This document shows, piece after piece, positions 31,255-51,580 of a stretch of 64,000 nucleotides of DNA; positions within the stretch are counted from its first letter, which is position 1; every line of letters starts with the position of its first letter. The stretch covers positions 320,001 to 384,000 of the forward strand of contig JASGJN010000022.1 in assembly GCA_049840735.1 (NCBI GenBank). The letters are read 5' to 3'. Source of the DNA: Anaeromyxobacter sp. (GTDB taxonomy: Bacteria > Myxococcota > Myxococcia > Myxococcales > Anaeromyxobacteraceae). The notes under the pieces are model-generated. The model saw only the letters and a list, made by a program, of their open reading frames with translations, did not search any database and was not told the origin of the DNA. The translations under genes were made by a program, and so were the position numbers.

Positions 31255-31318
31255 GGTGGGATTCGGAAACTCGCGGGAGAGATCGCGGCGTGTGACGCTG
31301 GGTCCGAGGAGCGCGCCC

Positions 31319-31708: not shown

Positions 31709-31712
31709 GGTC

Positions 31713-32728
31713 GATGAACCCGACGGTGCGGAGGTGCTGATGCGGCTCGAGGCCGAGCGGACGCTGCGGGAGGCCGGGATTGCCGGCGGCGCTGTCGGTG
31801 CGCGCTGGTCGGCGCTAGCCCGGCCACCGTGGCGCGCTGGCGCAAGCAGCTGGCGGCGGGCGAGCCGCCCGCGCAGCTCGTCGCCCCGCTCGGCCCCGAA
31901 CTCAAGGACGAGGTGGTCGCCGTGGTCCGCGGCCTGCGCGGATTGATCGGCGCCGAGGCCATCCGCCACGCGGTGCCGGGCGTGTCCCGGCGCCAGGCGG
32001 CGGCGGTGAAGCACGAGACGCTGACGGCGATGGAGCGGGAGCGCAAGGCGGCCGCCGCTACCGTGGAGGTCACCACGGCCGGCGCCGTCCGCGGCTTCGA
32101 CGCCATGTACCTGGCCACCACCGCCGGCCGCCGCTTCGCCCTGGTCGCGGCCGACGCCGCAATGCCCTACCGCACCACCGCCGCGGCGGTGCCGGCCTAC
32201 GACGGCCACGCCGTGGCCGCCCACGCTGGCTCATGACTTCGCTATCCACGGCGCGCCTCTGGTGCTGCGGGCGGACCGTGCCAAGTGTCACCGGACGGCC
32301 GAGGTGCTGGACGTGCTCCGGAGCCACAAGTGTCCTGCTGCTGTCATGGCCCGCCAAGCGGCACCCCGGCTACTACGGCCAGCTCGAGCGCCAGAACCGG
32401 GAGCACCGGGAGTGGCTCTTTGCCCAAGATAGGGCAATCCCGGAGGATGACCTGGAGCGGCTGTGTGAGGAGATGCTGCTGGCATTGAATGGCGCCTGGC
32501 CAAGGCATAGCCTGGGCTGGCGCACCAGCGAGGAGGCCTGGCAGGCGCGCCCGGAGCTGCACGAGGACCGCGACGCGCTTCGCGAGGAGGTGCAGGGACC
32601 GAGCCGCCCGGATCAGGCGGCGCGTGGAAGGCCGCGGTGCGACCGCGGCGATGGCCGAGCGCCTCGCCATCGAGTGGGCGCTGACGAAGCGCGGCTACCT
32701 GCGCTGCGAACGGGGAGGCGGATGCTAG
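31713..32728 (+). CDS. Second integrase-core (DDE-like) protein of the element (frameshifted, start uncertain)
   Basis: Fragments GFDAMYL...LVAADAA, LVLRADRA, PGYYGQLERQNREHREWL, LNGAWPRHSLGWRTSEEAW resemble an rve D-D-E layout. Stop falls inside the right inverted repeat. Confidence 0.55.
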
Positions 32729-32732
32729 GTGA

Positions 32733-33440
32733 TTGAGGCCGGATCAAACGGCTGACTCCGGCGGCGCGGCACACCGGTACAACGGACGGATATACGATTC
32801 CGGAACCGGCTTCCATGACAACGGCGCGCGGATGTACTGGCCAGAGATTGCGAGGTTTGTCAGTTCTGACTCGTACCAGGGAAGCACCGCAAGCCCGGCA
32901 TCGATGAACCGGTATAGCTATGTAGTTAACAATCCGTACAGGTACACGGATCCGACGGGGCACAAGTTCGTCGAGATCGATGCGAGCGTTGAGCCGGTGC
33001 TTCGCGAACTTAGGAAGACCGAGACAGGGAAGGCGCTCTACGACAAGTTGGAAGGTTCCGCGCACGAGTTCCGGATTAAGGAGGAGAAGGGACCTGACGT
33101 TACGCGAAGCGTTCCGGACTCCCCCGACCTCGCCGAGTATCGCAACCGCAAATTGGGCGGCACGGGCGGCACTACGCGTTTGAGAATGGACGTTCGATAC
33201 AAGTTTGAGGACGAGAAGGGTCAGTGGCAGGAGGCTCCTCTATCTGAGGTCCTGGCCCATGAACTCAATCATTTGAGTGACTTCGATTCGGGGATGGAGG
33301 ACAACAATCCAGATCACAGTCACAGGGCGCGGACCACGAAGGAGCGGGAGGCTATGGATACGGAGAACAAGGTCCGCAAGGAACTGGGGCTGCAGGGGAG
33401 CAGGATTCAATATGATCGTTCTGTGCAAGAGCCGAAATAG
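32733..33440 (+). pseudogene. Orphan Rhs C-terminal module: core tail + HExxH metallopeptidase-like toxin tip
   Basis: RYNGRIYDSGTGFHDNGARMYWPEIARF...NRYSYVVNNPYRYTDPTGH, then VLAHELNH...EAMDTENKVRKELG. No upstream YD repeats. Confidence 0.85.
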
Positions 33441-33960
33441 CCTTCTTCTCGTGATCGGGTTGGGGATCGGGGCCGCGTGTGTGACGCCCATCGATCGTCC
33501 GTGTGACTATGGCGGTGTCATTTCCGTGGTCGCTCCGAACACGCATGCCGATCGGCGCCCCGAGATGCGGAGGTGTGTAGATGGGTGGCGGCCGTGGCAT
33601 GCGTTCCGCCAGGACCTCTTTCGCCGCTTGGGTGCGAGTCGTGCGGCTGGGGCCCGCACGGTAGTCTTGATCGAGAGCGGGCACCCTGCCTGGGCCGGAT
33701 ATGGGTACGCTCTTGTGGTCGATGGAAAGGTGGAAGGCGTTCCGCCCGCATCAGGAAGCGTCGAACGGATGCCGCCAGTAGAAGGGCTGGTGAGCGTAAT
33801 TCGGAGCGATATCGAGGACGGCGGGTGTTGGTTCTTGACGGTCTCTGAAAACGGTAAGACGTCACAGGCGATTGTCTACGGAGAGTTGGGCGGGACGGAC
33901 AGTACAAGTAGGTTGGCAAGGTGGATGGCTGAGCGAGAAAGGCGCGTCCCGTTGCCGTAG
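33412..33960 (+). CDS. Putative immunity protein (lipoprotein-like signal)
   Basis: Overlaps the toxin stop. N-terminus LLLVIGLGIGAAC. Confidence 0.55.
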   Translation: MIVLCKSRNSLLLVIGLGIGAACVTPIDRPCDYGGVISVVAPNTHADRRPEMRRCVDGWRPWHAFRQDLFRRLGASRAAGARTVVLIESGHPAWAGYGYALVVDGKVEGVPPASGSVERMPPVEGLVSVIRSDIEDGGCWFLTVSENGKTSQAIVYGELGGTDSTSRLARWMAERERRVPLP

Positions 33961-34616
33961 GTCGGCCTGGGCCCAGAGGTCGGACGGGGGTGAAGCACTG
34001 GGATGCCCCCGAAGGCGCCGACCGCCTCCTCGGGCAGAGTAAGGTGCATGCGGGGACGTCGCTCAGGGAGGTGCGGAGCGGAATCCATTAGGCGGGCATG
34101 AGCGCGACGACAACCGTCTGCGGGGGAGATGCTGGCAGTCCTGGAAGGCGAGCATGGTTCATGTCTCGCGTGGTACTAGAGGTTTTCGGCGTGAGCTCGG
34201 CCGCGGTGCTGCCGAGCGGGTTTCCTGGGGTAGCCAGCGCGTTCGCGTGGCAGTGATCGGCGCCCTTTCGCGTCGCCCCGGCCAACTCCGTCTGCTGACG
34301 AGGAGAGTTGCCGGGGCGGACCGGTCCCGATTCGGTATCCGCGAGAACCGACGTGGCGAGTAGGTCGTCAGCGACCCCGGAAACGCGAGGCCGGAAACGC
34401 GAGGCCGCTGTGTGCGGCTCGACGAGGGAGTGCATCGGCCTAGGCGAGCGGGCGAGTGCACCTGACCCGACACTGAGGATCTGATGGCCGGGCGAAGAGT
34501 TCCGGAATCTCGTTGACTTGCCGCGCCGCTGCAGGTCGGGGCAAGGTATTCGCCTTGCCCGGGAACGACGAAGGGCCTCCAGGTCACCCTGAAAGCCCCG
34601 TCGATGCACCAGGATT

Positions 34617-34661
34617 TGGAGCGGGAAACCGGGTTCGAACCGGCGACCCTCAGCTTGGGAA
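34617..34661 (-). repeat. att core copy 3: exact 45-bp 3' half of tRNA-Gly(CCC)
   Basis: TGGAGCGGGAAACCGGGTTCGAACCGGCGACCCTCAGCTTGGGAA, identical to 50571-50615. Confidence 0.95.
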
Positions 34662-34791
34662 TTTGGTCGGGCACGGAAGATCGCGCGGAAATGGGCGCAA
34701 AACGCAGGGTAGCGCGCTGGTTCAGTCCCGCTGAATCCTCTTCGGCCGGAACAGACCTTGCCCAGACCTTGCCCAGGTCAGCGGCCCCCGC

Positions 34792-37143
34792 TCAGTCCGC
34801 GCGTGCGTCGTCCTTGGGCCTCCAGGCTAGGCGCGTTCGATGCGCTTCGGTGCGCCGAAGCGCTGCTTCGAAGGCGGCGGTAGAGTCGGCGCGAGTCCTG
34901 GCCACGATTCCGTCGTGCGACACCAGCGCTTGCAGGCGCGAGAGCGTCTCCACTCGCGGCGCGCGACCGGCAAGGACGTCGCGAATGTCGATGAAGGCCC
35001 GTCCGCGCTGCCCGGCGATCTGGGTCTGAGCGCCGAAGTGCACGAGGTTGCAGTAATCACCGCCGCCCATCGCCGGTCCACGTAGCCCTCGACCGATCAT
35101 CTGAGCGTAAAGCCGGAGGCTCAGGGTGGGGCGTGCGAGAATGAGCGTTTGCACCGGCGGAAGGTCGAGGCCCTCAGAGACGATGTCAACGCCGATGAGT
35201 ACCGCCTGTTCATCCTGCCGGGCGCGCATCAGGAACTCGTCCCGCCTGAGCTCCAGCTCGCGCATCCGCGGATGGGGGCCGAGCACTGAAATCCTGGAGT
35301 GGAACTGCCGGACCCATACATCACGTCCGAGGCCCATGAACATCGTGCGGAGCCCGCGCTCCAGCCGGGCGGCATGATCAACATCGACTGCGAAGAACAG
35401 AGTGGGGCCAAGCGGACCGATCTCGTCCGCGTACCGGGTGAGCAGCAGTCGATAGACGGTGAGAACGAGCGGCGTGTAGTTCTTCGCGAAGAGGCCGAGC
35501 TGGCGGCGCTCTTGAAACGCCAGCGACCAGGGGTCATCGGCCACCGCCTTCAGCACCCAGCCCGTTTCGACCGAGACGTGCCGGACGTGTGCAAGGACAG
35601 GCCGACCTTGTTCCTTCAAGCGCAATGCCGTGGTCAGTGGCATCCGCTGCACCACCGCGTTCCTGGGGAACTGGATCTCGAAAGCGCGCCGTGACAGTCC
35701 GCGTCCTCGCCGCCCAGGTGTCGCGGACAAGCCCACGAGCATCTGAGTGCGCAACGCATGGGCGATCGCGCGATACCGCTTGGCCCCGAATCGATGCGCT
35801 TCATCGATGATGATGGCGCTGAACTTCGAGCGTCCAATGGCAGGCAGGTGGTGGGCCGCTGAAGCATCGGTCGCCAGGAGCACCGACGGAGGATCGGGCA
35901 CGGTCGAACCCTTGCCCTTCAAGGTGTGAATACCCACCCCAGGTCCGAGTTGCCTTGTCAGCGTCATCGCCGCTTGCTCCAGAAGCAGTTGTCGGTGCGA
36001 GAGCCAGAGAACCCGCCCACCGCGATCGACGATGGTACGTACGAACTCGGCGGCGATGAGCGTCTTGCCCGTGCCGGGAGGCATCTCGATTGTGTAGCCG
36101 GGCAACCCTTCGGCGTGCTGAGGTCTCCCCTGGCTGACAGAATGCCAGATCGCTCGGAGTGCCTGGATGCGTGCAGCCTGCCAGCGGTACGGGCGAATCC
36201 TTCCCCGGGAAGGCGCATCAGCGCCCAGCGCCAGTTGAACGGGTGCCGCCTCGCGCCAGAGTGCTTCGGCCAATGCCTCGAAGCCATGTGGGTCGCCGAA
36301 TCGCCATGCCAGGGCGACGTTCAGTTCGCAGTTCTCGATGTACCCGGCGAAGGTGGCATTGGACGAGCCGACGATCGCGATATGGTGACCAGTCGCGAGC
36401 CGGAGTAGCAGAAGCTTCGCATGGAGCGGCGCGTCGGCTGATTCTTCCGTGCGCATCCGAATGCAATGCCGGAGCACCTGGCGCCGGGACCATCGACGGA
36501 TCGATGCGAGTCGTTGCACGACCGGATCGAGATCCGATGCAGGATCACCCACGACGATGCGCACGCTGTCGAATGCGGGTGAGCAGGTTGACAGCGGCTG
36601 CGCGAGCGCGAGATCGCTCAGCGCTCCGGAGGAGCAGGTGAAAGTGGATAGGAACGCCTGGCGGACTGTCGTTGCCCTGCATAGGCCTCGCAGCAGCACC
36701 GCGAGCGGGACCCATGGAGTGCTCAAGCCTGGGGGGCCAACAAGGGTTCGAGTCAGCGCGTCCAGGAGGACTGCGGGCTGTCCTCGATCGGGAACACCTC
36801 CGTACAGCGGCGTCTCTCGCTTTCGAGCGTTGGTGCTCTCGCCCGCCGCGAGGACCTCGAATGCGGAGTTCCCCATCTCCAGAAGATCGCCTCTGCGGAG
36901 CAGGTGCTGCCCGACGATTCGTCGACCGTTGACGTAAGTGCCTCGCTCCGAGTCGAGATCCCAGACCGAAGCAGAGCCGCCGCGAGGAGCGAGGGCCGCA
37001 TGCCGTTCGGATGCAAGGGGATCGACCAACACCACGTCGACCGACGGGCTTCGTCCGAAGACCATGCGCTTCCGGACCGCGATGCGTGCAACAGGCGATA
37101 CGCCCTGAAGAACCGATAGGGAAAGCGGACCGGGCATGGCCAA
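34792..37143 (-). CDS. FHA + phospholipase-D-like nuclease + SF2 (ResIII-like) helicase fusion
   Basis: FHA: FGRSPSVDVVL...SERHA...DLDSERGTYVNG. PLD: LHAKLLL...IVGSSNAT...NCELN. Helicase: PPGTGKT, IIDEAHR, LSATP, EGLDLP, QMIGRGLR. Confidence 0.85.
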   Translation of the reverse strand: MAMPGPLSLSVLQGVSPVARIAVRKRMVFGRSPSVDVVLVDPLASERHAALAPRGGSASVWDLDSERGTYVNGRRIVGQHLLRRGDLLEMGNSAFEVLAAGESTNARKRETPLYGGVPDRGQPAVLLDALTRTLVGPPGLSTPWVPLAVLLRGLCRATTVRQAFLSTFTCSSGALSDLALAQPLSTCSPAFDSVRIVVGDPASDLDPVVQRLASIRRWSRRQVLRHCIRMRTEESADAPLHAKLLLLRLATGHHIAIVGSSNATFAGYIENCELNVALAWRFGDPHGFEALAEALWREAAPVQLALGADAPSRGRIRPYRWQAARIQALRAIWHSVSQGRPQHAEGLPGYTIEMPPGTGKTLIAAEFVRTIVDRGGRVLWLSHRQLLLEQAAMTLTRQLGPGVGIHTLKGKGSTVPDPPSVLLATDASAAHHLPAIGRSKFSAIIIDEAHRFGAKRYRAIAHALRTQMLVGLSATPGRRGRGLSRRAFEIQFPRNAVVQRMPLTTALRLKEQGRPVLAHVRHVSVETGWVLKAVADDPWSLAFQERRQLGLFAKNYTPLVLTVYRLLLTRYADEIGPLGPTLFFAVDVDHAARLERGLRTMFMGLGRDVWVRQFHSRISVLGPHPRMRELELRRDEFLMRARQDEQAVLIGVDIVSEGLDLPPVQTLILARPTLSLRLYAQMIGRGLRGPAMGGGDYCNLVHFGAQTQIAGQRGRAFIDIRDVLAGRAPRVETLSRLQALVSHDGIVARTRADSTAAFEAALRRTEAHRTRLAWRPKDDARAD

Positions 37144-37298
37144 GGGTCCTCCAGCGTCCTTTGTCGTGCATGCGTCTCCTTAACGCAGTCTCGGCAGAGG
37201 AGCAGCACGCGCTGGTCAGGGGCGACGAGCGCGCGCTCGTGAGGGCGCAAGACATCTGGGGAGTTGACGCGTCACTGGAGGCTGAGAACGCTCGTCCC

Positions 37299-37844
37299 AT
37301 GACCACATCGGAACATCCGAATGAGCAGTCAGGTCGCCGCCGTCCGCCCGGTGCGTCACTCGGAGAGGAGGCGGAAATCCAGGCGCTCGTCAAGGTTCAG
37401 CGGGCCTTGGCGCCGCTGCGCCCTGAGTCTCGTACCAGGGTTCTCGCGTGGTTCTCTCAGCCGAGCGCGCCGGGTGGGCTGAGTGTTCCCGCGTCGAACG
37501 CGGAATACGAGGACCTCAGCGCGCTATTCGAGGCGGCAGGGCCGAAATCGGAGCCGGAGCGTGTACTGGTGGCGTGCTACTACCACCTCCAGACGCGAGG
37601 CGAGTCCGACGTGGGTGCGAGGGTCATCTCGGACGAACTAAAGCAGATGGGACACGGCACGAGCCACGCATCATGGATTCTGCACCAACTCAACGCGCGC
37701 GAGCCCGCCCTCTTGATGGTGGCGTCGAGGAGTGGCTCTGGACGGGGCACGAAATACAGGTACCGCCTGACCTCGGCCGGCGCCAAACGCGTGTCGCAAA
37801 TGCTCCAATCACGCACCGATGGCAGGCCGTCAAGCAAGCACTAA
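37299..37844 (+). CDS. Hypothetical protein with probable C-terminal winged HTH
   Basis: Helical N-terminus EIQALVKVQRALAPL...RVLAW. C-terminus ISDELKQMGH...YRLTSAGAKRV. Confidence 0.6.
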   Translation: MTTSEHPNEQSGRRRPPGASLGEEAEIQALVKVQRALAPLRPESRTRVLAWFSQPSAPGGLSVPASNAEYEDLSALFEAAGPKSEPERVLVACYYHLQTRGESDVGARVISDELKQMGHGTSHASWILHQLNAREPALLMVASRSGSGRGTKYRYRLTSAGAKRVSQMLQSRTDGRPSSKH

Positions 37845-37932
37845 GGCAGCCGGGGAGAATCGGCGGCCCCACAGGCTCAGTAGCCGGCCTGGGGTGGCTC
37901 GGGCGATCGTCGGACGCATGCAAGCTTGCATG

Positions 37933-39666
37933 CTACTTGGAAGTCGGGGGGCGCTTACCCGAGGCCACGCGGTACTTGGTATTCGGCGAGCGCGGGCTAC
38001 TCGTCGTGGTCGTCACCCGGCCTTCCTTTCGCAAGATACGAAGCCATCTGCGAACCGCCTCGGAGCCCAGGGCGAGCGCTGCCGCCAGTTCCCCGGCTGC
38101 GAGGTCCCCGCGCTCTCGCAGAACCCGCACGATGTCGTCCCTTCGGTCCTTGCGCTGACGCGGGGGCGCGTGGAGGACAGGCTTGAACTCATACGTTGCC
38201 CACCTCCGCGTGCCCTTCTGCAAGATGATACGGCGCGACACGAGATCGCTGAGTTCGCGGGTTGCGAGGCGGCTGTCCAGGCCAAGCAGTTGACGGTACT
38301 TGGCGTTTGTCAGTACCTGCCCGTGCTTCATCATCGCCAAGCCCATTCGTTGGCTGTCGGTGAGCTGGCCAGGGATGGTCGAGAGCCAGGCCACGGTGGC
38401 ATCGTCCAAGAGAGTCTGGTTTGGGAAGGTCACGCGAAAAGTCGAAACCCCGTCTTCGAAGACGGGTGGAGTCATGCCCGACTGACGAAGGGCGGCCACC
38501 ATGGCGCCAATCCCGGAGCCGCGATTCTCGCAGACCGCGAAGCGGTCGCCAGGCGTGGCGACATCTTCCAGCAGTCTCATGAGCACCTGGTTGCGGGCGG
38601 ACGAGACCCCCTCCTCGCCCAAGCGTTCCAGAGATACTGGACCGTGAAGGCCACCGGGATTGACGACTGCCAAACGGTCCGGGAACATCTGAACCTGAAC
38701 TGGAGAGCTCCGGCCTGGTCCGCTCAAGTCGCGATGGACCAGCGCGTTGACGAGGGCTTCGCGAAGCGCTGTCTCCGGATACTCCCAAAGGTCCTGGCGA
38801 AACCCCTCGTGCACGATCGCGCGCCGCTTCATGTTCCGTCGAAGGGCGTCGAGCAGCGGCCCGATCATCCTCGGAACCGGGCCGTCGACCCTTCGGTTGT
38901 CCAGGAACCGCTCGCCTCCGGGTCCGGATTCGCCAACGCGTGGTGTCGGGTAGGCCACGAAGGTCGCGCCCAGGGCCGGATAGAACTGTTGCGGGTACTT
39001 CCCCAGCGCGAGTAGGCCGCCAAGAGTCGGATGGATTCCGGATTCGACGCGCGCCGCCGCCTTCAGTGTCAACAAGGCGCCAGCATCATCGAGCTTGCGA
39101 AAGGCGCTGCCTTCCGGCTCGCGCTTCCGGGCAAGCAGCGCTCCCACGAGCTCCGGATCGAGATCTTCGAGGGTTGCCTCCAGCACTGGCGTCTCGTCTT
39201 CGCGAGGTTGTCCACGAGACGCGAACAGCAGGTGCACCTCGTACTCGCTGAGCTTCCTGTCCCCGTCGCCAACGCGCAGGAACGCGCCGTTCTTGAGTCC
39301 CGCGGGGACGTAGTAGCAGGGCTTCTCCGAACTTGAGAGCTCGGGAACAGCGCAGGTGACCAAGGTCTTGCCTTCGAATCGCACCGTTTCGATTCGGGGG
39401 CTGAGTCGTGGCTGCATGTCGGCGCACATCGAGGCCAGATCGCCCTGGACCTTGCGCGCATCCAGGACTCCGACCGCAGCAAAGCCGTCGTCCTCATCGA
39501 GGCCGAGGATGATGAGTCCGCCGCCGGGTGTATTCGCAAAGGCGGACAGCGTCTCCCAGAGCCGCCTGGGAAGCTCGCGATGTGCGCGCTTCGCCTCGAC
39601 GTGCTGGTGGTCCGTCGTGAAGACGCGCAGCTCCTCGATGGCCCGATCAAGGTCTTCGGTACTCAT
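37933..39666 (-). CDS. AlbA_2 (Schlafen-like) + HATPase_c_4-like + tandem HTH protein
   Basis: VEAKRA...ETLSAFANTPGGGLIILGLDE, YPETALREALVNALVHRD, NPGGL, ENRGSGI, and two C-terminal HTH-like segments. Confidence 0.9.
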   Translation of the reverse strand: MSTEDLDRAIEELRVFTTDHQHVEAKRAHRELPRRLWETLSAFANTPGGGLIILGLDEDDGFAAVGVLDARKVQGDLASMCADMQPRLSPRIETVRFEGKTLVTCAVPELSSSEKPCYYVPAGLKNGAFLRVGDGDRKLSEYEVHLLFASRGQPREDETPVLEATLEDLDPELVGALLARKREPEGSAFRKLDDAGALLTLKAAARVESGIHPTLGGLLALGKYPQQFYPALGATFVAYPTPRVGESGPGGERFLDNRRVDGPVPRMIGPLLDALRRNMKRRAIVHEGFRQDLWEYPETALREALVNALVHRDLSGPGRSSPVQVQMFPDRLAVVNPGGLHGPVSLERLGEEGVSSARNQVLMRLLEDVATPGDRFAVCENRGSGIGAMVAALRQSGMTPPVFEDGVSTFRVTFPNQTLLDDATVAWLSTIPGQLTDSQRMGLAMMKHGQVLTNAKYRQLLGLDSRLATRELSDLVSRRIILQKGTRRWATYEFKPVLHAPPRQRKDRRDDIVRVLRERGDLAAGELAAALALGSEAVRRWLRILRKEGRVTTTTSSPRSPNTKYRVASGKRPPTSK

Positions 39667-39900
39667 ACAAGCAGCATGGTATCATCATGTCAGCTTGTAT
39701 GCTTGCTCGAAGCGGCGCTTGGGACGGACACTGGGTACCGAGGCCGGACAGGAACCTTGCCCAGATCTTGCCCGGCCGAGAGGCGCTCAGATGGCTCCAT
39801 TGCCTGCGAGAGAAGGGGGACGGTGGTGTCCCGCAGAGCCGCGACCGTCAACCCCAACGAGAAAGGGGTCCCGCCGGTGGACGGAACCCCTCGGAAGAAC

Positions 39901-39945
39901 TGGAGCGGGAAACCGGGTTCGAACCGGCGACCCTCAGCTTGGGAA
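39901..39945 (-). repeat. att core copy 2: exact 45-bp 3' half of tRNA-Gly(CCC)
   Basis: Identical to 34617-34661 and 50571-50615. Confidence 0.95.
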
Positions 39946-40502
39946 AGTGGTCGGGCGCGGAAGACCACGCGAAAATGGGCGCAAAACGCGGGGTCGAGGC
40001 TGGTTCAGTCCCGCTGAATCCCGTTCGGCTGGGACGGACCTTGCCCGGACCTTGCCCGGTGGGCCGCGCGCCGCCGTGCCTTCGAAGAGCACGAGCACGC
40101 GCAGCGCCGGAGACGCGTCTCAAACTTGCTGCCCTGTCGCGCCGAGGCGTCAAGAAGCCGCAGATGGCCGGGTGCTTTGGGCTGCGGCCGCAGGCGTTCA
40201 GCGGGTCCTGCGGCAAGACCCGGAGTTCACTTCGCATCTCGGTCTTCGTCGCTCTGCTCGCCGTCTGCACGAGTTCACCAAACGCGAAGCGGTGCTCCTC
40301 GATTCAGCGCCTCTTTTGGAAGGCCGTTGACCCTTCGCGGCCATCCTGCTGACATCCCCGCACCGCAGCTGCAGTTGGGGGGGGAGCGCTGGGACGGACG
40401 GGCCGCGCCCGTGGACCTCAGCGCCCCTCGACAGAACACTACGTAGATTCCTCGCCCGGCCGAGGGCGCGACTCGTGTGCGCGTCGCCTGCCTGGAGGAC
40501 GA

Positions 40503-43500
40503 ATGAACCGCTTGCTCCAGGCTGTCGGAGTTGTGCTGCTGCTCGTGTCTACCGCGAGTGCGGCGTCCCCGTCGAAGCCGAACACCTCGCGCCTCGAGCC
40601 GGCGGCGCTAGCGAGCCCGGGCAACGCGCGGGTGGGTGACGGGTTGCGCCTCGACTACGCCGTGAGGAACCCCACCGCGCTGGCATCCGCCCGTGGCCAG
40701 GTGACGTTCTCGCTGTCCTCGGCCACGAGCACGGCCGCCTCGCTGCAGGCCAGCGGGGCAGCAGCCCCCAGCGCTGTCGCGGCGGGAAGAAGCTACCGGC
40801 TCACCAGCGTTTCGCTGGAGGGCCTGGCGGCGGGCCAGACGGTGAGCGGTTCCGTGGTCGCCGCGGTGCCCAACATGGCCGCGGGCGAGTACAACCTCGT
40901 GGCCGTGGTGCACGAAAGCGGGCACCCCGTCACCGACGATCGGGCTCTGACCTCGACCCACGTGGTCACGGTGGCCGCCCGCACAAGCGTGCTGCCGAAC
41001 CTCTCGGTGGTAAGCGTGAGCGGCCCGACCCTGGTAGCGACCGACACGACCATCACCGGAACGGCCATCTTCGCGAACGATCCGGCCGGCTCGGTCGCGG
41101 CCGGTGACTTCGTCTCGGAGTTCCAGCTGGCGCTCGATGGCTTCCCCGAGGTGATCGCTGCGGCGGAGCAGCCTACCGTCGCGGGCCCCCTCAGCCCGGG
41201 CGCCCAGGTGCAGGTGCAGGCCGCCCTGGCCGTGCCCGCGAACGCGACACCGGGGACCTACCGGATCCTGGCCCGGGCCGACGTCACCGACACGGTGCTG
41301 GAGTCCAGGGAGGACGACAACCAAACGGCGGGCGCGGAGATCCAGGTGGTGGTCGACGCCCTGCCGCCGGAGCTCCACGTGACGGCTCCAGCGGATGGGC
41401 TGGTCCTGTCCGGCACCGAGGCGACCGTGACCGTGAGCGCCACCGACGACGCCGGGGTCCGCGCCGTCACAGCCAACGGCCTTCCGCTGCTGCCGAACCC
41501 TAGCGGAACTTGGAGTGGGGCCGTGCCACTGCTCGAGGGCCCCAACGCGCTGGTGGTGACGGCGACCGATCTCGTCGGACACGAGACCACCCAGGAGATC
41601 CACGTCCGGCGAGACACCATCGCGCCTGCGCTGGAACTCACCTCGCCGGCGGGCGGCAGCGAGGTCTACGCAACCTCAATCAGGTTGGCGGGCCGGTTGG
41701 TCGACGCTGGTCCTGTCGCTTTGCAGGTTGCGGGCGCAGCGGTTCCAGTGGCGGCCGATGGATCCTTCGGCGTCGACGTGCCCCTGGCGATGGGGGACAA
41801 CGCGTTCACGCTGGTGGCGGTCGACCAGGCGGGGAATCGGGCGTCGGCCATCGTGCATATCCAGCGGGTGACGCCGCCGCTGCGCGTGACGGTGAGCGAG
41901 CCGGCGGCAGCTTTCGTGGTGAAGTCGGCCTTGCTCTCGGTGCGTGGCGTCGTCACGGGTGCGCAGGGCACGGCTACCGTGACCGTGAACGGTACCCAGG
42001 CGCCGCTCTCCGGCGACGGGTCCTTCTCTGCGATGACCACGGTTGCTGTCGGGCAGGTCTCCGTGGAGGTGGCTGCAGCCGACGCCTCGGGGCAGACCGT
42101 TCGCGTGGTGATCCAGGGGACGCGCGTCGGGGCCGGTACCGACGGCGCTGCGGCGGGCTGGTGCGACTCGAAGCCTGGGACGGCCATGACCTATGACCCG
42201 GCCGGGAACCTGACAGGCATCTACGACACGGCCAACGACGTGTCCAACTGCGGCTGCCCGGGCCACGCCTGTGCGCCGAGCGCCGCGGGCGCTGCGGCCT
42301 GCAGCAAGGGCGTTTGCGGCGTGGTCGCCGGAGCGGGGTTCATCGGACTTTCGAACGACCCGACCAACTGCGGCACGATCGGGCACGTGTGTCCGGCGGT
42401 CGCGAATGGTGGGGCCACCTGTGAGAACGGCTCCTGCGCTGTCGAGTGCGCCACCGGCTACGCGGCCATCGGGAGCGGGTGCTTCGACATCCTGCGCGAC
42501 CCGCTCAACTGTGGCTCGGTCGGGAACGTGTGCCAGGCCACCACCATGGGCGTGCCGGTGTGCACCGATGGTCTCTGTGGGCTCGAGTGCCGGCCGGAGC
42601 ACGTCTCGGTGGGCGGGCGGTGCATCGACATCAACACCGACCCGCAGAACTGCGGGACCGTCCAGAACGTTTGCCCCGGGACGGACAACGGATCGGGCGT
42701 CTGCGTGGACGCTCGCTGCGGCCTGCAGTGCGACCCCGGGTACGTGATGAGGGGTTGGTACAGCTGCGTGGACCTTTCCACCGACCCCGAGAACTGCGGA
42801 GCGGTCTACAACCAGTGCCCCACGTCCGATCACGGCACCACGACCTGCTCGAACGGAGTCTGCAACCTTCAGTGTGAGCCGCACTACTTGCAGCAGGCCG
42901 GGGCCTGCATCGACGTCGCGGTCGATCCCGCGAACTGCGGCGGAGCCGGCGTGGCCTGCTCGGTTCCCCGCAACGCGTACCCCACCTGCACTGACGCGGT
43001 CTGCGGCTTCGCCTGCAACCCCGGGTACGTGCTCCGCGGAGGTCAGTGCGAGCCGCGCGATCCGACCTCGGATCTGGACTACTGCGGCGCGGACGCGGTC
43101 CAGTGCCCTCCGGACGAGCACGGCGTCGCCGATTGCGACAACGGCGTCTGCGGCGTGACCTGCAACGCGGGTTACGGGCTGTACGGGGGCGTCTGCGTCC
43201 CCTCGACCGACCCGGCGCACTGCGGGACGCGCACCACGGCCTGCCCGACCGTGGCGCACGCGGTCGCGCTCTGCATCAACAACACCTGCGATCTCCGCTG
43301 CGCCGACGGCTACGAGCGTTCCGGCAACACCTGCGTAGCCGTCGCGGCGGACCCGCTCAACTGCGGCTGGGTGGGCCACCGCTGCACGACGCCGGCCCAC
43401 GGAACGGCCGTGTGCGAGGCCGGCGCCTGCGGCGTGAGCTGCAATGCAGGATATCCCGAGCAGGACGGGGCCTGCGTCGACGTCCAGACTGATCAGTGGA

Positions 43501-44987
43501 ACTGCGGGGCGCTGGAGAACATCTGCCCGGGGGCGTACGAGAACTCGGCCACGTGCTCGGCGGGCGTCTGCGCGACGGTAGGCGCGCCCTCGATCACCGG
43601 GGTAGCCCGGATGCGCACGGTGTTCGCGATCAGCTACACCTCCTCCACGGGCCTGCTCGCCCTCCAGGACGATCTGACGAGCAATCCCCCCTCCTCGGTG
43701 ATCGGCGGTGACGGGACGACCGAATACCAGGTCCTCTCGGTCTCGCCGGCGGGGCTGATGCTGGCGCGCGGGCTCGATCCCGCGGTGGTGCTCACCGGCG
43801 AGGAGTGGGCCGAGGGCACCTGGTGGAAGGCGAGGCTCGTGTTCCCGCCGTCGGCCAGCGACACGATCGACCTCACCCGCAATGACGGCCTCGTCGTGCG
43901 CGGAACGGGCCTGCGCGCCGATGGGCAGCTCGGGCTGATGACGACCGCAGGAGACGTCCCCGGCGACCTGTCCTCGGCCATCTACTCGGCCGACAAGGCC
44001 GTGGTGCCCGAGATCCGCGACATCACCGAGCGCTTCGCCTTCGTGGCCTTCCGATCGGTTCGCGGGGACGCTGCCACCTGGAATCCGGTCAGGTGGAGTG
44101 ACGCACCGCGGATCACGAGCATCCGGGCCGAGGGCGACTACGACTGCGGAGCGGATACCTGGGCGTGTCCTTCCTACGTGGCCTACGGACGGCAACTAGC
44201 GGTCGAGGGCTACTGGCTCGACAACGTCAACCTGGTGTCGTTCGAGCATGTGGTGTCCGGGGACAACGCGGAGGAACTGGTGCCTGCCCGCGGCTCCGGG
44301 AGCGCGTCTCCTGACTGGTATCAGGTGACCGACGCCAATCACCTCACGCTCTGGCTGGATGTGGACGGCGGCCCGGTGGCGCGCGGCCTGTTGCTGAGGA
44401 GCACCTACAACGGGTCCTACACCACGTATCTGCAGGAGCCGTATCCGGGGCTTCGGTATCTGTCGTTCATCCAGTCCGATGAGAACGGCCTTCAGGGCTT
44501 CTCCGTGGCACTGACTGCGGTGCCCCCGTCCACTAAGGCGATCAGCTACGGTCGCGTGCTCACCAACCGGGGCTATCGCAGCGATTGGGACTCGTTCGAG
44601 GTGGGCACCGTCAGCCCTCTGGACGACGACCGCCTGCTCTTCCGCGCAAACGCCTTCACGGCTGGAGACGTGGACTCCATCCGCTTCGTCTCCCACTGGG
44701 GTGGCACGCCATGCCCGGCCGCGGTGAAGAGCTTCGGGGGCTCGCCCATCGTCGTGCGCTTCGAGCCGATGGACTACTTCCCGTCCGCGTACTGCCGCAT
44801 GGTCGTCCGGCTAAAGGATGGCTCGGAGATCTACAGCCCGTTCACCTTCTGGTTCGCCAGCAAGCACGCACCGCTGCCCCCGACGCCCGATCCGGGTGAT
44901 CCCGGGCCGGACCCTGACCCGCAGCCGTTCCCGATGCCCCAGCCTCGCACGCCGGGCCAGGGCTCGACCAACACGGTGATCCCGTGA
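40503..44987 (+). CDS. Large secreted protein: CARDB/Ig-like domains, ~10 Cys-rich repeats, uncharacterised C-terminal region, Pro-rich tail
   Basis: Signal peptide MNRLLQAVGVVLLLVSTASA, ESREDDN (CARDB-like), DxxPP/GxN..TxxAxDxxGN Ig-like repeats, DPxNCG repeats. Confidence 0.85.
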   Translation: MNRLLQAVGVVLLLVSTASAASPSKPNTSRLEPAALASPGNARVGDGLRLDYAVRNPTALASARGQVTFSLSSATSTAASLQASGAAAPSAVAAGRSYRLTSVSLEGLAAGQTVSGSVVAAVPNMAAGEYNLVAVVHESGHPVTDDRALTSTHVVTVAARTSVLPNLSVVSVSGPTLVATDTTITGTAIFANDPAGSVAAGDFVSEFQLALDGFPEVIAAAEQPTVAGPLSPGAQVQVQAALAVPANATPGTYRILARADVTDTVLESREDDNQTAGAEIQVVVDALPPELHVTAPADGLVLSGTEATVTVSATDDAGVRAVTANGLPLLPNPSGTWSGAVPLLEGPNALVVTATDLVGHETTQEIHVRRDTIAPALELTSPAGGSEVYATSIRLAGRLVDAGPVALQVAGAAVPVAADGSFGVDVPLAMGDNAFTLVAVDQAGNRASAIVHIQRVTPPLRVTVSEPAAAFVVKSALLSVRGVVTGAQGTATVTVNGTQAPLSGDGSFSAMTTVAVGQVSVEVAAADASGQTVRVVIQGTRVGAGTDGAAAGWCDSKPGTAMTYDPAGNLTGIYDTANDVSNCGCPGHACAPSAAGAAACSKGVCGVVAGAGFIGLSNDPTNCGTIGHVCPAVANGGATCENGSCAVECATGYAAIGSGCFDILRDPLNCGSVGNVCQATTMGVPVCTDGLCGLECRPEHVSVGGRCIDINTDPQNCGTVQNVCPGTDNGSGVCVDARCGLQCDPGYVMRGWYSCVDLSTDPENCGAVYNQCPTSDHGTTTCSNGVCNLQCEPHYLQQAGACIDVAVDPANCGGAGVACSVPRNAYPTCTDAVCGFACNPGYVLRGGQCEPRDPTSDLDYCGADAVQCPPDEHGVADCDNGVCGVTCNAGYGLYGGVCVPSTDPAHCGTRTTACPTVAHAVALCINNTCDLRCADGYERSGNTCVAVAADPLNCGWVGHRCTTPAHGTAVCEAGACGVSCNAGYPEQDGACVDVQTDQWNCGALENICPGAYENSATCSAGVCATVGAPSITGVARMRTVFAISYTSSTGLLALQDDLTSNPPSSVIGGDGTTEYQVLSVSPAGLMLARGLDPAVVLTGEEWAEGTWWKARLVFPPSASDTIDLTRNDGLVVRGTGLRADGQLGLMTTAGDVPGDLSSAIYSADKAVVPEIRDITERFAFVAFRSVRGDAATWNPVRWSDAPRITSIRAEGDYDCGADTWACPSYVAYGRQLAVEGYWLDNVNLVSFEHVVSGDNAEELVPARGSGSASPDWYQVTDANHLTLWLDVDGGPVARGLLLRSTYNGSYTTYLQEPYPGLRYLSFIQSDENGLQGFSVALTAVPPSTKAISYGRVLTNRGYRSDWDSFEVGTVSPLDDDRLLFRANAFTAGDVDSIRFVSHWGGTPCPAAVKSFGGSPIVVRFEPMDYFPSAYCRMVVRLKDGSEIYSPFTFWFASKHAPLPPTPDPGDPGPDPDPQPFPMPQPRTPGQGSTNTVIP

Positions 44988-45046
44988 AGCGCCCAGCGGC
45001 TGTGTCCCGTCCTTCGCGTCCTGAACACCGAGGCCTCGAGGCTCTC

Positions 45047-48000
45047 ATGAGAATCAAGTCTTTCTGCGGATTCGCCCTCCTCGCCCTCCTCGCGCTGCCG
45101 CTCGGCGCCTGGGCGCAGCAGACGTCCCAGCCCCGCGGTGACGTGGCCGACGCGTTCTTCCGCTTCACCGGCACCGAGAACAAGCCCTTCGCCTCGGAGC
45201 TGCCTGGCGAGACGGTCGATCCGTTCACCGGGACGCTGCACATCGTGCAGACGGATGTGGTGCTGCCGGGGCACGGCGGGCTCGACTTCCGCATCATCCG
45301 CTCGTACAGCAGCAAGATCTGGGGCAGAGCCGACCTGCTCGACTCAGAGCCCCTGCTGGCCGAGAAGGAAGCGTCGATTCTCGGGTACGGCTGGAGCCTG
45401 CACTTCGGGCGCCTTCGTAACCCCTGGGCGACCGGGAAGAGCGACATCTGTGGCGGCGACTTCCCTGTCTTCGAGGAGCCGGACGGTACCTCGCACGTCT
45501 TCTACCCGCACCGGACCCTCGGGAACGTGTTCGTCTCCAAGGACTACTGGCGGATGGAGCGGAACTGCGCAGCGGCCGGCGCTGGCGGGACCTGCGTCTG
45601 GTCCAGCAGCGGTCTCCGCTATGACTTCCTACCGTCCAGCACGGTGGATGGGGTGGCTCGACTCAACACGTTCCAGGTGGGCGGTACCGCGGTGCTTCCG
45701 GCGGTGCGCGTCGTGGACCCGTTCGGCAATCAAATCACGTACACCTATATCGCTTCGACCGGTGCTCCCGAGTCAGTTAAGGATACGTACGAAAGAATCG
45801 TCGAATTCCGCTATAGCGTGATCAATGCCGAGCGCCGGCTCCAGAGCATCCTGCTCAACGGCAAGGCCTTCACCTACGGGTACGAGACGCTCAGACCCGA
45901 GGACGTGGCTGGCCACACTGGCCGATTTCCGCTGCCCGGACCCAGGCGCTTCCTCACGCAGGTCACTCCGCCCGCCGGCCCCTCGTCCTACTACAGCTAC
46001 TGGCTCGATACCCCCGTCGGTGAGAACCAGTATGCGCTGCGGACGATCACCTATCCTGCCGGCGGATCCACGACCTACAACTACGGCGCGGTCGCGTTCT
46101 TCACCGGACTCGAGACCGTCTCATTTGCGACGGTGACCAGCCGCGTCACCGGCGGTCGGGGAATCGCCGCAGGAGAGTGGACGTACGAATACCGATCGCC
46201 CGGCTACAAGACGTACGATTCGACTGATCCCGAGGACGGAAGCAAGTCTGACCTTCACGTCACGACGATCACGCGTCCGGACGGTCTCCACGATACGTAT
46301 ACGCTGTACGGATTCGGGTGGGCTGCCGATCAGGATCGTTTCGGCTACACCTACGCCGTGGGGTTGACGCGCTCGATAGCAAGAGCGGACCGGGCCGAGG
46401 TCGAGTACTTCGACTGGGACCTGCGCATCGAGCAACCGGTCTCCGACGCGACGTTCAGCGCTCCGGTCTACTCCACCAGCTGCGGAGCCCACTTCGTGGC
46501 GGACGGCGGCGTGTACGCGCCACAGGTCGCGCACCACTGGTTGATGCGCGACGAGGATCAAGGAACTGGCCAAGCCGCCTGGTTTCAGACGGACTACAGC
46601 AATTTCGACGCTTACGGCCAGGCATTGTCGATGGTGGAGACCGGTTACAGCGGCAGCCTTGGAGACATCCCGCCGGTCCCGGCCGTGAGGACGACCGAGC
46701 TCTCCTACTTCTCGGCTCCCGAGGAAGGCGGCCAGACGCTCAACATGGTCCGGGGGAAACTCCTGACGCAGTCGATCTGCGTGAGCGGCGACTGCTTCCA
46801 GGATGCTTGGAGCTACGACGAGCCCGGCCACCCTGTGCACCTGGAGGTGAAGAGCGGCGTCGCCACCCGGTTCGACCACTACCTCGACGGCGATTCTCAA
46901 GAGCGTGACCAACGCCGCGAACAAGCAGGTCACGCTGTCCGACTATGAGTTCGGTCTGCCCAAGACTGCTTCGGTTCGGGGCGGTCCGACCACCAGCAGG
47001 TCGGTCACCTGGGAAGGTTGGGTCAACAGCCGCACGACTGGCCGGAACTTCACGACCACGATCGATCTTGACGACGTCGGGCGGCCGCTCCTTGTGACGC
47101 CACCCGGTGCGAGCGAGCCGACCCGATACACCTACGCCGCAGATGGCTCGACGCTGACAGAGACCCGGGGCGCCTACAGCAAGGTGGCTTCTCTTGACGG
47201 GCTGGGCCGAGCCGTGGCGACGCTCGACTCGCTGGGCGTGAAGTCCAGCGTCACCTTCGACGCGATGGGAAGAACGACGTTCAAGTCCTACCCTTACGAC
47301 GACACCCGCGGCGAAGTCGGCGAGCTGAGCGAGCTTGACGGCCTCGGGCGCGTTATCACCGCGACCCAAGGTTACCGACCCAGCCGGGGAGCGTGCGATA
47401 GGCCCGGGGCTTGTCAGACGCGAATTGCCTATAAGTACAACTGCACGGAGAGTTGGGTGGAGCGCGGCCCCAAGGACGTCACCGAAACGGGCGCGTGCTT
47501 CGTCTCCTACGGTAGCCCGGACGAACAGCGGCTCGCGCAGGTGGCCGCGCGCACGGCCCCGGGCGGAGGCTGGGCCTACTGGCAGTATGCATATACCGCC
47601 GCAGGCCAGCTCAAGGGCGTGACGGCGCCGCTCGACCAGGCCGACGCCCAGCAGAACTTCGACGAGCACCAGTTCCTGCGGCGCGCTGTGAGCCATGAAA
47701 GCGGCGAGACCGTCTTCACCCCGAACGCCATCGGGCAGCCGACGTCGCGCGTGGACGCCCGCTCGGTCGCAACGCAGTATGGCTACGAGGATCCGCTCAG
47801 CCGCCTCCGCACGATCACGTACCCGGGTGACCCGGCCAACGACGTCCGACTGGACTACGACGAGGACAGCAACCTGAGCACGAGCGCCAGCGCGAATGGG
47901 GGTTCGTACAGCTACGGCTACGACGAGCGGGATCGCCTCACATCCCAGACCTGGACCATCGCCGGGCACGCCTACATCACCACGTACCACTACGATCCAA

Positions 48001-49572
48001 CGGGCTGTCTGGACTCCGTCACCTACCCCACCGGAACCACCTTGACCCAGACCTGCGACGCCGCGAACCGGGTCGCGAGCCTCACGGCCAATGGGCAGCC
48101 GATCGTGGGCCAGGTCACCTACCATCCGACCGGGCAACCTGCGACCTTCACTTATGGAAACGGCGTCGGAGACCGAGGTGGTCATCGACGATCGGGGCCG
48201 GGTCTCGTCCATCACCGCGGGCGACGTGATGGCGTTGACCTACGGCTACGACGGAGCCGGGAACGTGACGTCGCTGGACGACCGCGCCGTGGGAGGCAGC
48301 GCACGCTTCATGGTGTACGACCCCGCCGACCGTCTTCAGAGCGTATCCGCGCCCGGGCTGTGGGGCTTGGCCTTGTACGCCTACGATGAGCTCGGCAATC
48401 GGACGCTCAAGCACGTTGGCGACGACGTGACCTACAGCTACGACGCGAACAACCGGCTCAGGTCCTCGACCGAGGCGCCGAGCCGTGGGACCATGACGCT
48501 GACCTGGGATGGCGAAGGCCGGCTGGCGACGTCGTCGGACGGAGCCCTCTACCGGTACAACGGTCAAGGTCTCCGCGTGCTCAAGCGTGACGGCTCAGGC
48601 GTCACGGTGTACCACCACGATGGCGCCGGCCGCGTGATCGCCGAGACCCGCCCTGACGGCACGCTCCTCCGGGAGTATTTCTTCTTCGCGGGCCAGCTGG
48701 TCGCGGTCCACGGCTGCGTCGCGGGTAGCGCTAGCTGCAGTGCGCTGGAGTGGTATCACACTGACACGCTCGGCAGCGCCACGGCCCGGACCGATGCCAG
48801 CGGCAACGTCACGTCCCGCGTGCAGTACGATCCATGGGGCGGCGAATGGTCCGAGCAGGGCGAGATGGGCGCTCGGCGGTTCAACGGGCGGGTCCACGAC
48901 CCAGGGACCGGCTTCCATGATTACGGTGCGCGGTTGTATTGGCCGGAGATGGGACGATTCGCCAGTGCGGACACCGTTCTCGGAAAGTCGGAGAGCGTGG
49001 CCTCCCTGAACAGGTACAGCTACGCTTGGAACAACCCATACAAGTTCATCGACCCAAGCGGGCACAGTGTGTTTGTGGTAGGCGACCCTGAGGCCTACGA
49101 GACCGCTACGGCATACCTACGCCAGGACCCAGCAATGCGCGAGGCCATTGACCAACTTCAATCGCCGGATACGCCGCTGGTGACCGTTGTCGTCTGCGAT
49201 ACGTGCAAAGACTCCTACAAACCAAGTGCCAGGGAAATCAGGTGGAACCCGAAACTTGCACACACGGGGTTCGCGGATGGATCCGGGCCGCGGACAGAAT
49301 CGGGCGAGCCGGGGGTCCAAAGTCCCGCGATGGCGCTTGGACATGAACTGGCACATGCTGCTGGACACGGTGCCGGTGGCCCCGCAGGGGAGGAGATAGT
49401 CGACTACCCTGCAGGCGCATACGTTAACATGGAGGAGATGCGCGTGATCACCGGTCCGGAGGCCAGTGCCGCGCGGACCCTTGGCGAAGATGCTCGAATG
49501 GATCATCGCGGCAAATCGGTGCACGTATCTGGCCCCCTGGATCGGACGGTTCCTGATGAACACGCGAGATAA
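45047..49572 (+). CDS. Rhs/YD-repeat polymorphic toxin with Sec signal peptide and HExxH tip (frameshifts at ~46894 and ~48169)
   Basis: MRIKSFCGFALLALLALPLGAWAQ, VDPFTGTLH...IRSYSS, many YD repeats, YHTDTLGS...YDPWG...GARLYWPEMGRF...NNPYKFIDPSGH, LGHELAH. Confidence 0.9.
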
Positions 49573-50041
49573 GCCAGGAGGTTGGGTCGCCCTTGGGGTA
49601 GTCCTTGTCGCGTTGGGCTGTCCTGGCCGTCCCTTGGCGGAACCGGTCAGCCCAGCGGTGAAGGCCTTTGCCGCGGCACGGTTTCAACCGCTGAGGCGGC
49701 TTGCGGATCTCCCGCAAGACGTGAGGGTGGCTGTAGACGCCGCGCTGCAGCACGAGCCGCTGGCCGATGCTGGAGAGGACTGGAACCCGACCTGTCTCGT
49801 CAACGAGGACTTGCCTGGCCAGCATCTTCTCTTTGCTGGCGGCTCGAAGGACCTCTGGTTCATCTACATCGAGATCGGCGGATACGGGTTGGGCTACCAC
49901 GTGTACACGTTCCGCCGCGCCAAGGGACGTGTGATCCTCGAGGGCGACTGGAGCGTGTCAGCCGATCCCGTCGCGTCCATAGACGCTCTGCAGACAGCGG
50001 TCCTATCTGAGGCGCAGGCTGCAGAGTTCCGGGACAGATGA
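49556..50041 (+). CDS. Putative immunity protein (lipoprotein-like signal)
   Basis: Overlaps the Rhs stop. WVALGVVLVALGC. Confidence 0.6.
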   Translation: MNTRDKPGGWVALGVVLVALGCPGRPLAEPVSPAVKAFAAARFQPLRRLADLPQDVRVAVDAALQHEPLADAGEDWNPTCLVNEDLPGQHLLFAGGSKDLWFIYIEIGGYGLGYHVYTFRRAKGRVILEGDWSVSADPVASIDALQTAVLSEAQAAEFRDR

Positions 50042-50520
50042 TCCCCGTCCAAAGGGCGCGCTTGAGCGCTTGTACAACCGACCCCGGGCCGGCTTGCGTG
50101 AATCCTTGGCCCGCACCGCACAGCGCTGGACCATCGGAACATCGGGCGTGCTCGTTATGCGTTGAGCACGCCAGCGCCTAGTGGATTCCCTGGCCAGGGG
50201 AGTTGGTCCACGTCGCCTCGTATTCCGCAAGCGGCTGCCGATCTCTATCGGCGGGCGACCAGTTCAGCGGGTTGCTAGAACCGCATCGTGGGTCGCGGTC
50301 GTACATGGTCGACAGTCGACCTCCTGGAGTCATGGGCCTGGGTTCCGTCCCGGCCAGGCCCGCCGGCCAGGCGTTCGCTCGACGCCGTAGAAGCGAGCTT
50401 GCCTGACAGCGCGCCCGGCCCGAAACTCAGGATTCTGAGGGTCGCCTGAAAACCGAAGGTCCCTCAGCCGCTTGCTGCGACCCCGCGGGCCCGGGCAAGG
50501 TATTCACTTGCCCGCAGAAA

Positions 50521-50557
50521 GACGAAGGACCTCCAGGTTTCCCCGAAAGCCCCGTCG
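50521..50557 (-). terminator. Hairpin downstream of the tRNA (homologous hairpin at 34567-34603, analogous one at 39864-39891)
   Basis: Minus strand GGGCTTTCGGG-GAAA-CCTGGAGGTCC-TTCGTCTTT. Confidence 0.6.
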
Positions 50558-50570
50558 CTACATCGGAATT

Positions 50571-50646
50571 TGGAGCGGGAAACCGGGTTCGAACCGGCGA
50601 CCCTCAGCTTGGGAAGCTGATGCTCTACCAACTGAGCTATTCCCGC
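50571..50646 (-). tRNA. tRNA-Gly (anticodon CCC)
   Basis: Reverse complement GCGGGAATAGCTCAGTTGGTAGAGCATCAGCTTCCCAAGCTGAGGGTCGCCGGTTCGAACCCGGTTTCCCGCTCCA: full cloverleaf, TTCGAA T-loop, encoded CCA. Confidence 0.98.
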
Positions 50647-51485: not shown

Positions 51486-51580
51486 CCTTCGACTTCGGGC
51501 CCGCGGACGCGGGCCCTACGCTCAGGCCGAACGGACGGATAGGAACCCGCTCGCCCCGCGCCAGGCTCGGGGCGAACGGT
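51486..51580. repeat. REP-like palindromic element, copy 2
   Basis: CCTTCGACTTCGGGCCCGCGGACGCGGGCCCTACGCTCAGGCCGAACGG, lying between convergent genes. Confidence 0.75.

Follow-up and report, generated by a model that had tools for sequence, protein, structure and literature searches.

We analysed a 64,000-nt stretch of an Anaeromyxobacter genome (hereafter the window; coordinates are positions in it, G000 is the genome that carries it, and other genomes and loci are numbered Gnnn and Lnnn), which contains a tandem array of units flanked by attachment (att) sites at a tRNA-Gly(CCC) gene. These units are probably non-autonomous satellites, similar to cis-mobilizable elements (CIMEs), of rare islands that occupy the same tRNA and encode a tyrosine integrase, here named Int-B. 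None of the units encodes an integrase, their family recurs across Anaeromyxobacteraceae, and Int-B is found beside arm repeats of the same kind.

The array is organized around a 45-bp core, the 3′ half of the tRNA gene, whose copies at 34617, 39901 and 50571 are 100% identical and whose spacings of 5284 and 10670 bp delimit two complete units, B and A. No further copy at 100% identity exists elsewhere in the 6.67-Mb assembly (94% complete), and no copy of the att module lies away from the array in G000. Identity runs through the 7-nt anticodon loop and no further; crossover at this loop corresponds to the 'A' subsite of tRNA islands in the accessible part of the Islander report (PMC4383910). 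The array thus has the anatomy of a tRNA island: an intact tRNA, displaced 3′ fragments in the same orientation and a crossover at a known subsite. As the first-pass annotation of this DNA had claimed along with the exact cores and their spacings, the unit ends are homologous. Specifically, the distal arms of units B and A (34664-34774 and 39948-40057) are 87% identical over 111 bp, and the proximal arms of units C and A (34517-34616 and 50471-50570) are 79% identical over 101 bp, with a likeness that extends left to ~34465/50419. The proximal arm of unit B (39756-39900) is laid out differently. Tandem CTTGCCC repeats occur three times genome-wide, every time within the array, and each proximal arm has a hairpin and U-rich tail (z −3.0 to −4.4) that could replace the tRNA terminator. 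Units A and B retain both attL and attR, as arms and cores, which is a property of CIMEs; unit C is without its distal end.

The same annotation had reported no recombinase, replication or phage genes in the units, and our searches bear this out. PF00589 and PF00239 have no match on the array contig, and with --max a 39-sequence integrase hidden Markov model (HMM) gave a best E of only 0.15 across the six frames of the window. Because all six frames were searched, frameshifts hide no integrase in the window, and a degraded integrase is ruled out there by the Pfam and six-frame searches. Indel errors are likely in the G000 assembly, because its two copies of an insertion sequence (IS) differ by 52 gap positions and an xerD-like gene loses frame near its end; frame breaks in that gene (contig C17, 17141-18175) and in an island integrase (contig C4, 66731-68220) are a sign of such errors. 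Pfam, NCBIfam and HMM scans found no recombination or transfer genes in the window units, again as in CIMEs, and Pfam and NCBIfam scans of the window found no replication or phage genes. Replication, packaging and relaxase genes are absent from the window units and from 91 scanned proteins of related units and islands; the origin of transfer, oriT, was not searched for. The window units therefore lack the integrase gene expected inside each tRNA island.

Two proposals of the first-pass annotation found no support. It had placed the integrase elsewhere, which for this genome is not borne out: Int-B was not found in G000, and the other candidates there were only XerC/D, integrases of another clade at 31% identity, or short motif matches, none of which we accept as a helper. 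It had also suggested an integron-like mechanism. The junctions are instead double-stranded, lambda-type att sites composed of tRNA cores, arm repeats and a terminator rather than attC (no attC model was run), the sole Rfam match in 29000-51000 is the tRNA, and nothing in G000 exceeds the cut-off of the IntI profile TIGR02249, against which Int-B scores 48 with a cut-off of 265.

Arms of the window type recur in Anaeromyxobacteraceae; outside it, a sample of 301 genomes of the class yielded one core-only match. We fetched 120 regions, with cores present in 78 of 92 genomes, and a metagenome scan gave 55 stretches, from which three duplicates (L202, L216, L239) and two rearranged loci (L214, L235) were removed before counting. 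Two broad classes of island occupy tRNA-Gly, one with TTGCTAC-type arms and an integrase beside the proximal end, the other with TTGYCC arms (repeat variants CCTTGCCC, GGTTGCCC and TTGTCC). TTGYCC proximal ends have either plain repeats (type a) or, in addition, a second core-type dyad in inverted orientation (type b, as in units A and C); in type c the same module is direct (unit B, L212 and twice inside G033). The combined count over genomes and metagenomes is 44 distinct TTGYCC unit starts, 28 of them complete, and the units range from 1 to 20 kb. In 40 of 43 distal arms the distance between the overlap and the end of the repeats is 112-113 bp.

Within this family, absence of an integrase is the rule. 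In 21 genomes an integrase is present in 1 of 18 complete TTGYCC-arm units versus 12 of 16 complete units with other arms (p 5e-5, with related genomes not independent); type-a ends, which were read by eye and have a repeat period of 12, not 11, are counted under 'other' in this tally and in that of excisionases. When metagenomes are included, 27 of the 28 distinct complete TTGYCC units have no integrase match, and the one integrase is broken. Integrase-less units are as frequent at tRNA-Gly as integrase-bearing islands. The window units hold no integrase remnants, and the arms are mostly not on integrase-bearing islands, which occur with these repeats in a minority of relatives; both were points on which the first-pass annotation had said its reading could fall.

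The units also keep their ends while their surroundings change. Among six units found repeatedly, five hold both ends constant and switch neighbours at the core; a single left end precedes three different units, and another case is a unit that lies next to the tRNA in two contigs but internally in G023. This agrees with the earlier picture of minimal att-flanked, integrase-less units stacked at a regenerated tRNA, and comparison of the arms with related genomes, a check proposed with it, finds them flanking varying cargo at tRNA-Gly. Of the 27 distinct type-b ends, nine abut the tRNA itself, and seven distinct TTGYCC units are closer to the tRNA than a junction of the integrase-bearing class. 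Ends that are 92-99% identical surround unrelated cargo, and three of five such pairs, which are not independent of one another, span genera. In addition, the arm variant (C or T) matches at both ends in 17 of 18 units.

The most likely recombinase for these units is Int-B, the second integrase clade at tRNA-Gly, which adjoins type-a arm repeats in 5 of 92 genomes (G027, G041, G043, G028 and probably G025). It preserves the catalytic residues R-K-H-R-H-Y, its modelled N-terminal domain is predicted to consist of three strands plus a helix, and the best fold match of the model is lambda Int. As in lambda-type att sites, arm repeats flank a 7-bp overlap, and the N-terminal domain of Int-B is predicted to bind arms. 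A small regulator and an excisionase-like open reading frame lie upstream of Int-B; the excisionase of the Int-B island matches only G027 and G025 and, weakly, G018. Int-B of G025 and G028 is one subtype (92% DNA identity), and the G028 arm shows the window's CCTTGCCC variant. In G041, L196 and L199 a broken Int-B is located between both arm types. These associations suggest that Int-B recognizes the arms of the units and may act on them in trans. The clade is confined to Anaeromyxobacteraceae in a 401-genome sample of the phylum; ~150 relatives occur in metagenomes, and a contig scan of genomes matched only G027's own locus. One relative at 48% identity, P0008, has a C-terminus that reads through the tRNA-Gly core, so the clade targets tRNA-Gly beyond the genomes examined. 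At L113:5658-7274 (G028), an in-frame fusion joins the N-terminal half of Int-B to unrelated sequence, and a beta-protein (PF14350) gene set comes next.

Several observations weigh against a satellite relationship with Int-B. Int-B looks intact in only 2 of 92 genomes, its link to the arms in G025 crosses a contig break, and it was not found in the array-bearing genomes G023, G026, G071, G075 and G079; the helper is therefore rare for a family that seems to turn over. Excision and recombination of the units are read from sequence anatomy, and no relaxase, phage or plasmid carrier was found for them. The orders of units never contradict one another, so that RecA-mediated loss between 300-bp junctions from a longer array fits them as well as fresh insertion does. 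Integrase-less units with a plain type-a arm exist (the L217 unit), Int-B islands do decay (G028, G041 and G043 have a broken or truncated Int-B), and two open units contain remnants of another integrase island. At L209:3840-5259, L197 and L189:10130-13430, a tRNA-like stub past the distal arm is followed by a regulator fragment and an opposite-facing integrase fragment; we read these as what is left of another island, either nested within the unit or fused with it.

Much of this would be expected if the units were ordinary CIMEs, that is, Int-B islands whose integrase was deleted in place, whose att sites are homogenized by RecA and which move only in cis with a new island. Decay and accretion form an established route to CIMEs, as far as the accessible portions of the relevant studies go (PMC5704250, PMC7563491), and degenerate junctions without a core, as well as array orders that fit loss from a longer array, are consistent with it. 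However, in the available sequence no integrase match adjoins any of the 27 distinct type-b ends, no Int-B island with a type-b end was seen, and the other arm classes at the same tRNA mostly retain their integrase. Ends that are 99% identical around unrelated cargo in two genera are also hard to obtain by decay alone. We consider ordinary decay possible as the whole explanation, though unlikely.

That Int-B is rare while another integrase clade is common at tRNA-Gly, with the same core in both, raises the idea that the link to Int-B is historical and that the TTGCTAC-arm integrases, host XerC/D or homologous recombination alone move the units; G000 itself has four TTGCTAC-type integrase loci elsewhere. 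Yet the TTGCTAC islands have different arm repeats at a different spacing, the arm variants co-vary at both ends of a unit, and the core-type dyads have 7-bp spacers, whereas the dif spacer is 6 bp. We regard movement by one of these other means as very improbable.

We therefore favour the satellite reading, in which each unit would be cargo held between the two arms of a lambda-type attP, and the unit circle would recombine at the 7-bp anticodon loop of tRNA-Gly(CCC). An incoming unit would supply a new tRNA 3′ half and terminator, displacing older units away from the tRNA; we infer this order of insertion, as we do a route between cells. Int-B, as a three-domain integrase that would bind TTGYCC arm repeats and that resides on rare small islands at the same tRNA, may act in trans or from a neighbouring unit, with the helper visiting only rarely. 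Because Int-B was not found in G000, the array there is probably waiting for its helper, and it may be eroding, as in the IS-associated deletion of unit C. The units would then constitute a persistent family, with ends that are conserved and swapped among lineages, and not separate wrecks of islands that each once bore an integrase.

The inverted second core-type site with its own arm repeats, present at all 27 distinct type-b ends, is a new observation; in the literature searched, mostly outside subscription papers, we found no second inverted core site of this kind and no description of this cassette family. The dyad lies ~145-160 bp from the core and comprises a conserved half-site resembling the tRNA anticodon stem, a variable 7-bp spacer and a weaker outer half-site. 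Among the 27 ends, two of which are mis-anchored in our alignment of spacings and spacers (G081 and window unit C), the spacers are of 23 kinds, none equal to the tRNA overlap, and the inverted arm sites are mostly 61-62 bp from the dyad. A half-site scoring at least 8/10 is present at 35 of 39 inverted-arm junctions compared with 22 of the 121 other junctions and with 17% of random windows. In sequence the segment looks like a type-a attL that has been inverted and worn. The dyad most likely serves as an additional Int binding site, one that delimits the att segment on the outside and takes part in recombination now and then.

Cargo changes abruptly at both ends of the att backbone. In five of five pairs at least 92% identical, the break coincides with the dyad's outer edge (14-16 nt to the left of the inner half-site), and in 68 of 95 distal-arm pairs at least 88% identical it falls 0-1 nt past the last arm repeat; neither set of pairs is independent. 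These sharp boundaries, the conservation and fixed spacing of the dyad, and rearranged joints near half-site-like sequences (G071, G033, L214/L235) could mean that the ~300-bp att backbone and its second dyad form an active capture platform, a device that attaches new cargo at set edges and keeps it at the tRNA, functioning like an integron but through lambda-type chemistry. The breakpoint, however, falls beyond the entire dyad instead of inside the 7-bp spacer. Since the outer half-site moves together with the arm, a crossover at the dyad spacer is not the capture step. There is also no target-site duplication (17 units, p 0.64), which, together with the lack of module copies away from the array in G000, excludes a transposon-like insertion of the module; no donor locus reaches the dyad except between related units, and there is no resident integrase or cassette promoter. 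An active platform is thus quite improbable. A broader proposal, a helper-dependent cassette system in its own right in which the backbone and inverted second site receive new cargo at fixed edges, spread across genera and build integron-like arrays at tRNA-Gly through a visiting lambda-type integrase, is one that we advance only tentatively and judge unlikely.

Other rearrangements at these sites were considered as well. An inversion that flips the cargo lying between dyad and distal core can be set aside, as no such product occurs among type-b units, and a reversed arm in G031 looks like a noisy inverted duplication. The first 520 bases of L214 and L235, on the reverse strand, show a type-b arm joined to an inverted tRNA core in two assemblies, with the joint at an A-rich stretch just ahead of the terminator; this looks like inverted integration, or inversion, at a pseudo-site. 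The joints in G071 and L214/L235 suggest occasional off-target recombination. Some integrases, such as IntDOT, tolerate overlap mismatch, according to the available part of one study (PMC2817482).

The search for a vehicle was negative. The junction pattern has no match in viral contigs, and the five matches to a looser pattern are chance occurrences inside phage genes, which dismisses them as evidence of phage carriage. A plasmid and phage search returned only the tRNA in plasmids and nothing in phages. One phage contig carries a relative of Int-B at 44% identity; none was found for the G025 subtype.

The features of the array are listed below. The cargo of the window is Rhs toxin/immunity-like and defence-like, with no match to any complete known defence system. 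The idea of a conflict-gene array is not supported for the family, which carries toxin-antitoxin (TA) genes of HigBA, HicAB, MqsR, MNT-HEPN and PIN types, a full Wadjet and Rhs alongside Hcp/Rrf2, dehydrogenases, transporters and regulators. One open unit encodes a small serine resolvase domain. In G023 (contig C52, 19377-27362; L041), a complete Wadjet type I operon and an MqsR toxin gene fill one integrase-less unit.

Features of the array at tRNA-Gly(CCC) in the window
Feature	Coordinates	Strand	Basis
tRNA-Gly(CCC), integration target	50571..50646	-	ARAGORN, Rfam, sequence
Core presumably brought by the newest unit; anticodon-loop overlap 50609-50615	50571-50615		
Unit A, 10,670 bp, tRNA-proximal, without integrase	39946..50615		
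Core copy (tRNA 3′ half) separating units B and A	39901..39945	-	
Unit B, 5,284 bp, without integrase	34662..39945		
Core copy separating units C and B	34617..34661	-	
Distal (P-type) arm of unit A, with CTTGCCC arm repeats in tandem at 40040 and 40051	39946..40057	+	
Unit B distal arm, with its arm repeats at 34757 and 34768	34662..34774	+	
Type-b proximal arm of unit A, with the second, inverted core-type dyad at 50419-50444, arm sites at 50493 (inverted) and 50507 (direct), and a terminator that may replace that of the tRNA	50419..50570		
Type-b proximal arm of unit C, with the second dyad at 34465-34490, arm sites at 34539 and 34554, and a terminator	34465..34616		
Type-c proximal arm of unit B, with direct arm repeats at 39756 and 39767, terminator, then core; second half-site in direct orientation at ~39842-39852	39756..39900		
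Unit A: 1494-aa secreted protein with immunoglobulin-like and cysteine-rich repeats	40503..44987	+	Pfam, NCBIfam
Unit A: Rhs gene (DUF6531, YD repeats, Rhs core, peptidase-M91-like tip)	45047..49572	+	
Unit A: small gene behind the Rhs tip; its position alone suggests an immunity protein, and no family matches	49481..50041	+	
Unit B: FHA + PLD-like + superfamily 2 (ResIII) helicase, defence-like	34792..37143	-	Pfam, NCBIfam
Unit B: gene without family assignment, ~171 aa, start uncertain	37329..37844	+	
Unit B: Schlafen/AlbA_2 + HATPase_c_4 (RecG-like) + helix-turn-helix protein	37933..39666	-	Pfam
Unit C, remaining part: Rhs core and peptidase-M91-like tip (to 33440), then putative immunity lipoprotein (33412-33960)	32774..33960	+	
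IS481-like element truncating unit C; TGT...ACA ends, frameshifted, no target duplication	29452..32773	+	

The Rhs gene of unit A spans three overlapping frames, and the breaks may be assembly indels. The right end of a third unit is present, as had been proposed, with a Rhs core at 49% identity to that of unit A; the earlier annotation missed the IS481-like element that cuts it. Because of this cut, unit C is a truncated Rhs unit and not an orphan-toxin cassette, and no distal arm or core of it survives beyond the element. A second copy of the element, 91% identical, is on contig C4; both copies (window 29452-32773 and G000:C4:164324-167637) abut a Rhs core region on the same side without target duplication, possibly reflecting a preference for Rhs genes or repeated adjacent deletion. 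Short intergenic repeats resembling repetitive extragenic palindromes lie at 51508-51539 and 55141-55316, near the hisG-murA-prmC-prfA genes.

We compared the family with known systems as these are described in the accessible portions of the cited sources. CIMEs and tandem accretion (ICESt1/ICESt3; PMC5704250, PMC7563491) are similar in that att-flanked cargo units of 1-20 kb without integrase or transfer genes are stacked at the 3′ end of a target gene and outnumber their helpers. CIMEs are defined, however, as decayed integrative and conjugative or integrative and mobilizable elements, and here no conjugative parent was found: the Int-B islands share arms with the units, no conjugation genes were seen, and type-b units have no Int-B remnant. 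Streptococcal CIMEs are reported to lie always farthest from the target (PMC7563491), whereas the units here are often the newest member and share a family-wide end design never found on integrase-bearing islands. The islands catalogued by Islander and TIGER (PMC4383910, PMC12424338) have the same tRNA 3′ fragment, anticodon-centred crossover and tandem arrays, but an integrase is demanded for each island (PMC12424338) and the present units would be rejected; att-delimited islands without integrase vestiges amount to only 6% in a recent survey (bioRxiv 10.64898/2026.01.13.699239). Catalogues that require an integrase thus overlook units that bear TA pairs, Wadjet, Rhs and genes of metabolism. 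Likewise, tycheposons and additive flexible genomic islands (bioRxiv 10.1101/2020.12.28.424599, PMC10872708) insert serially at tRNAs, with partial tRNA copies between them and rich cargo; tycheposons, unlike these units, encode their own integrase (bioRxiv 10.1101/2020.12.28.424599), and for additive islands the available text gives the tRNA repeat as the sole hallmark, with neither conserved arms nor a helper (PMC10872708).

Integrons and attC-site clusters that have no integron integrase (CALINs; PMC11389934) resemble the array in their serial, exchangeable cassettes, with the newest at a fixed site and TA or defence cargo common, and CALINs are mobilized by an enzyme from elsewhere (PMC11389934). 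The differences are the lack of IntI, attI and attC, the double-stranded att junctions with arm repeats, and multi-gene units of up to 20 kb. The question raised by the present family is how cargo is swapped with base precision and what purpose the second core site serves; natural arm variants paired with Int-B variants would map arm-site specificity. MITEs (miniature inverted-repeat transposable elements), non-autonomous partners of IS elements (PMC11389934), similarly have conserved ends upheld without an enzyme, but here the apparent chemistry is site-specific recombination, with one target site, large cargo and no target duplication. With Int-B and its natural att variants, the family would provide a defined helper/satellite pair for tyrosine-integrase islands, a counterpart of MITEs and CALINs.

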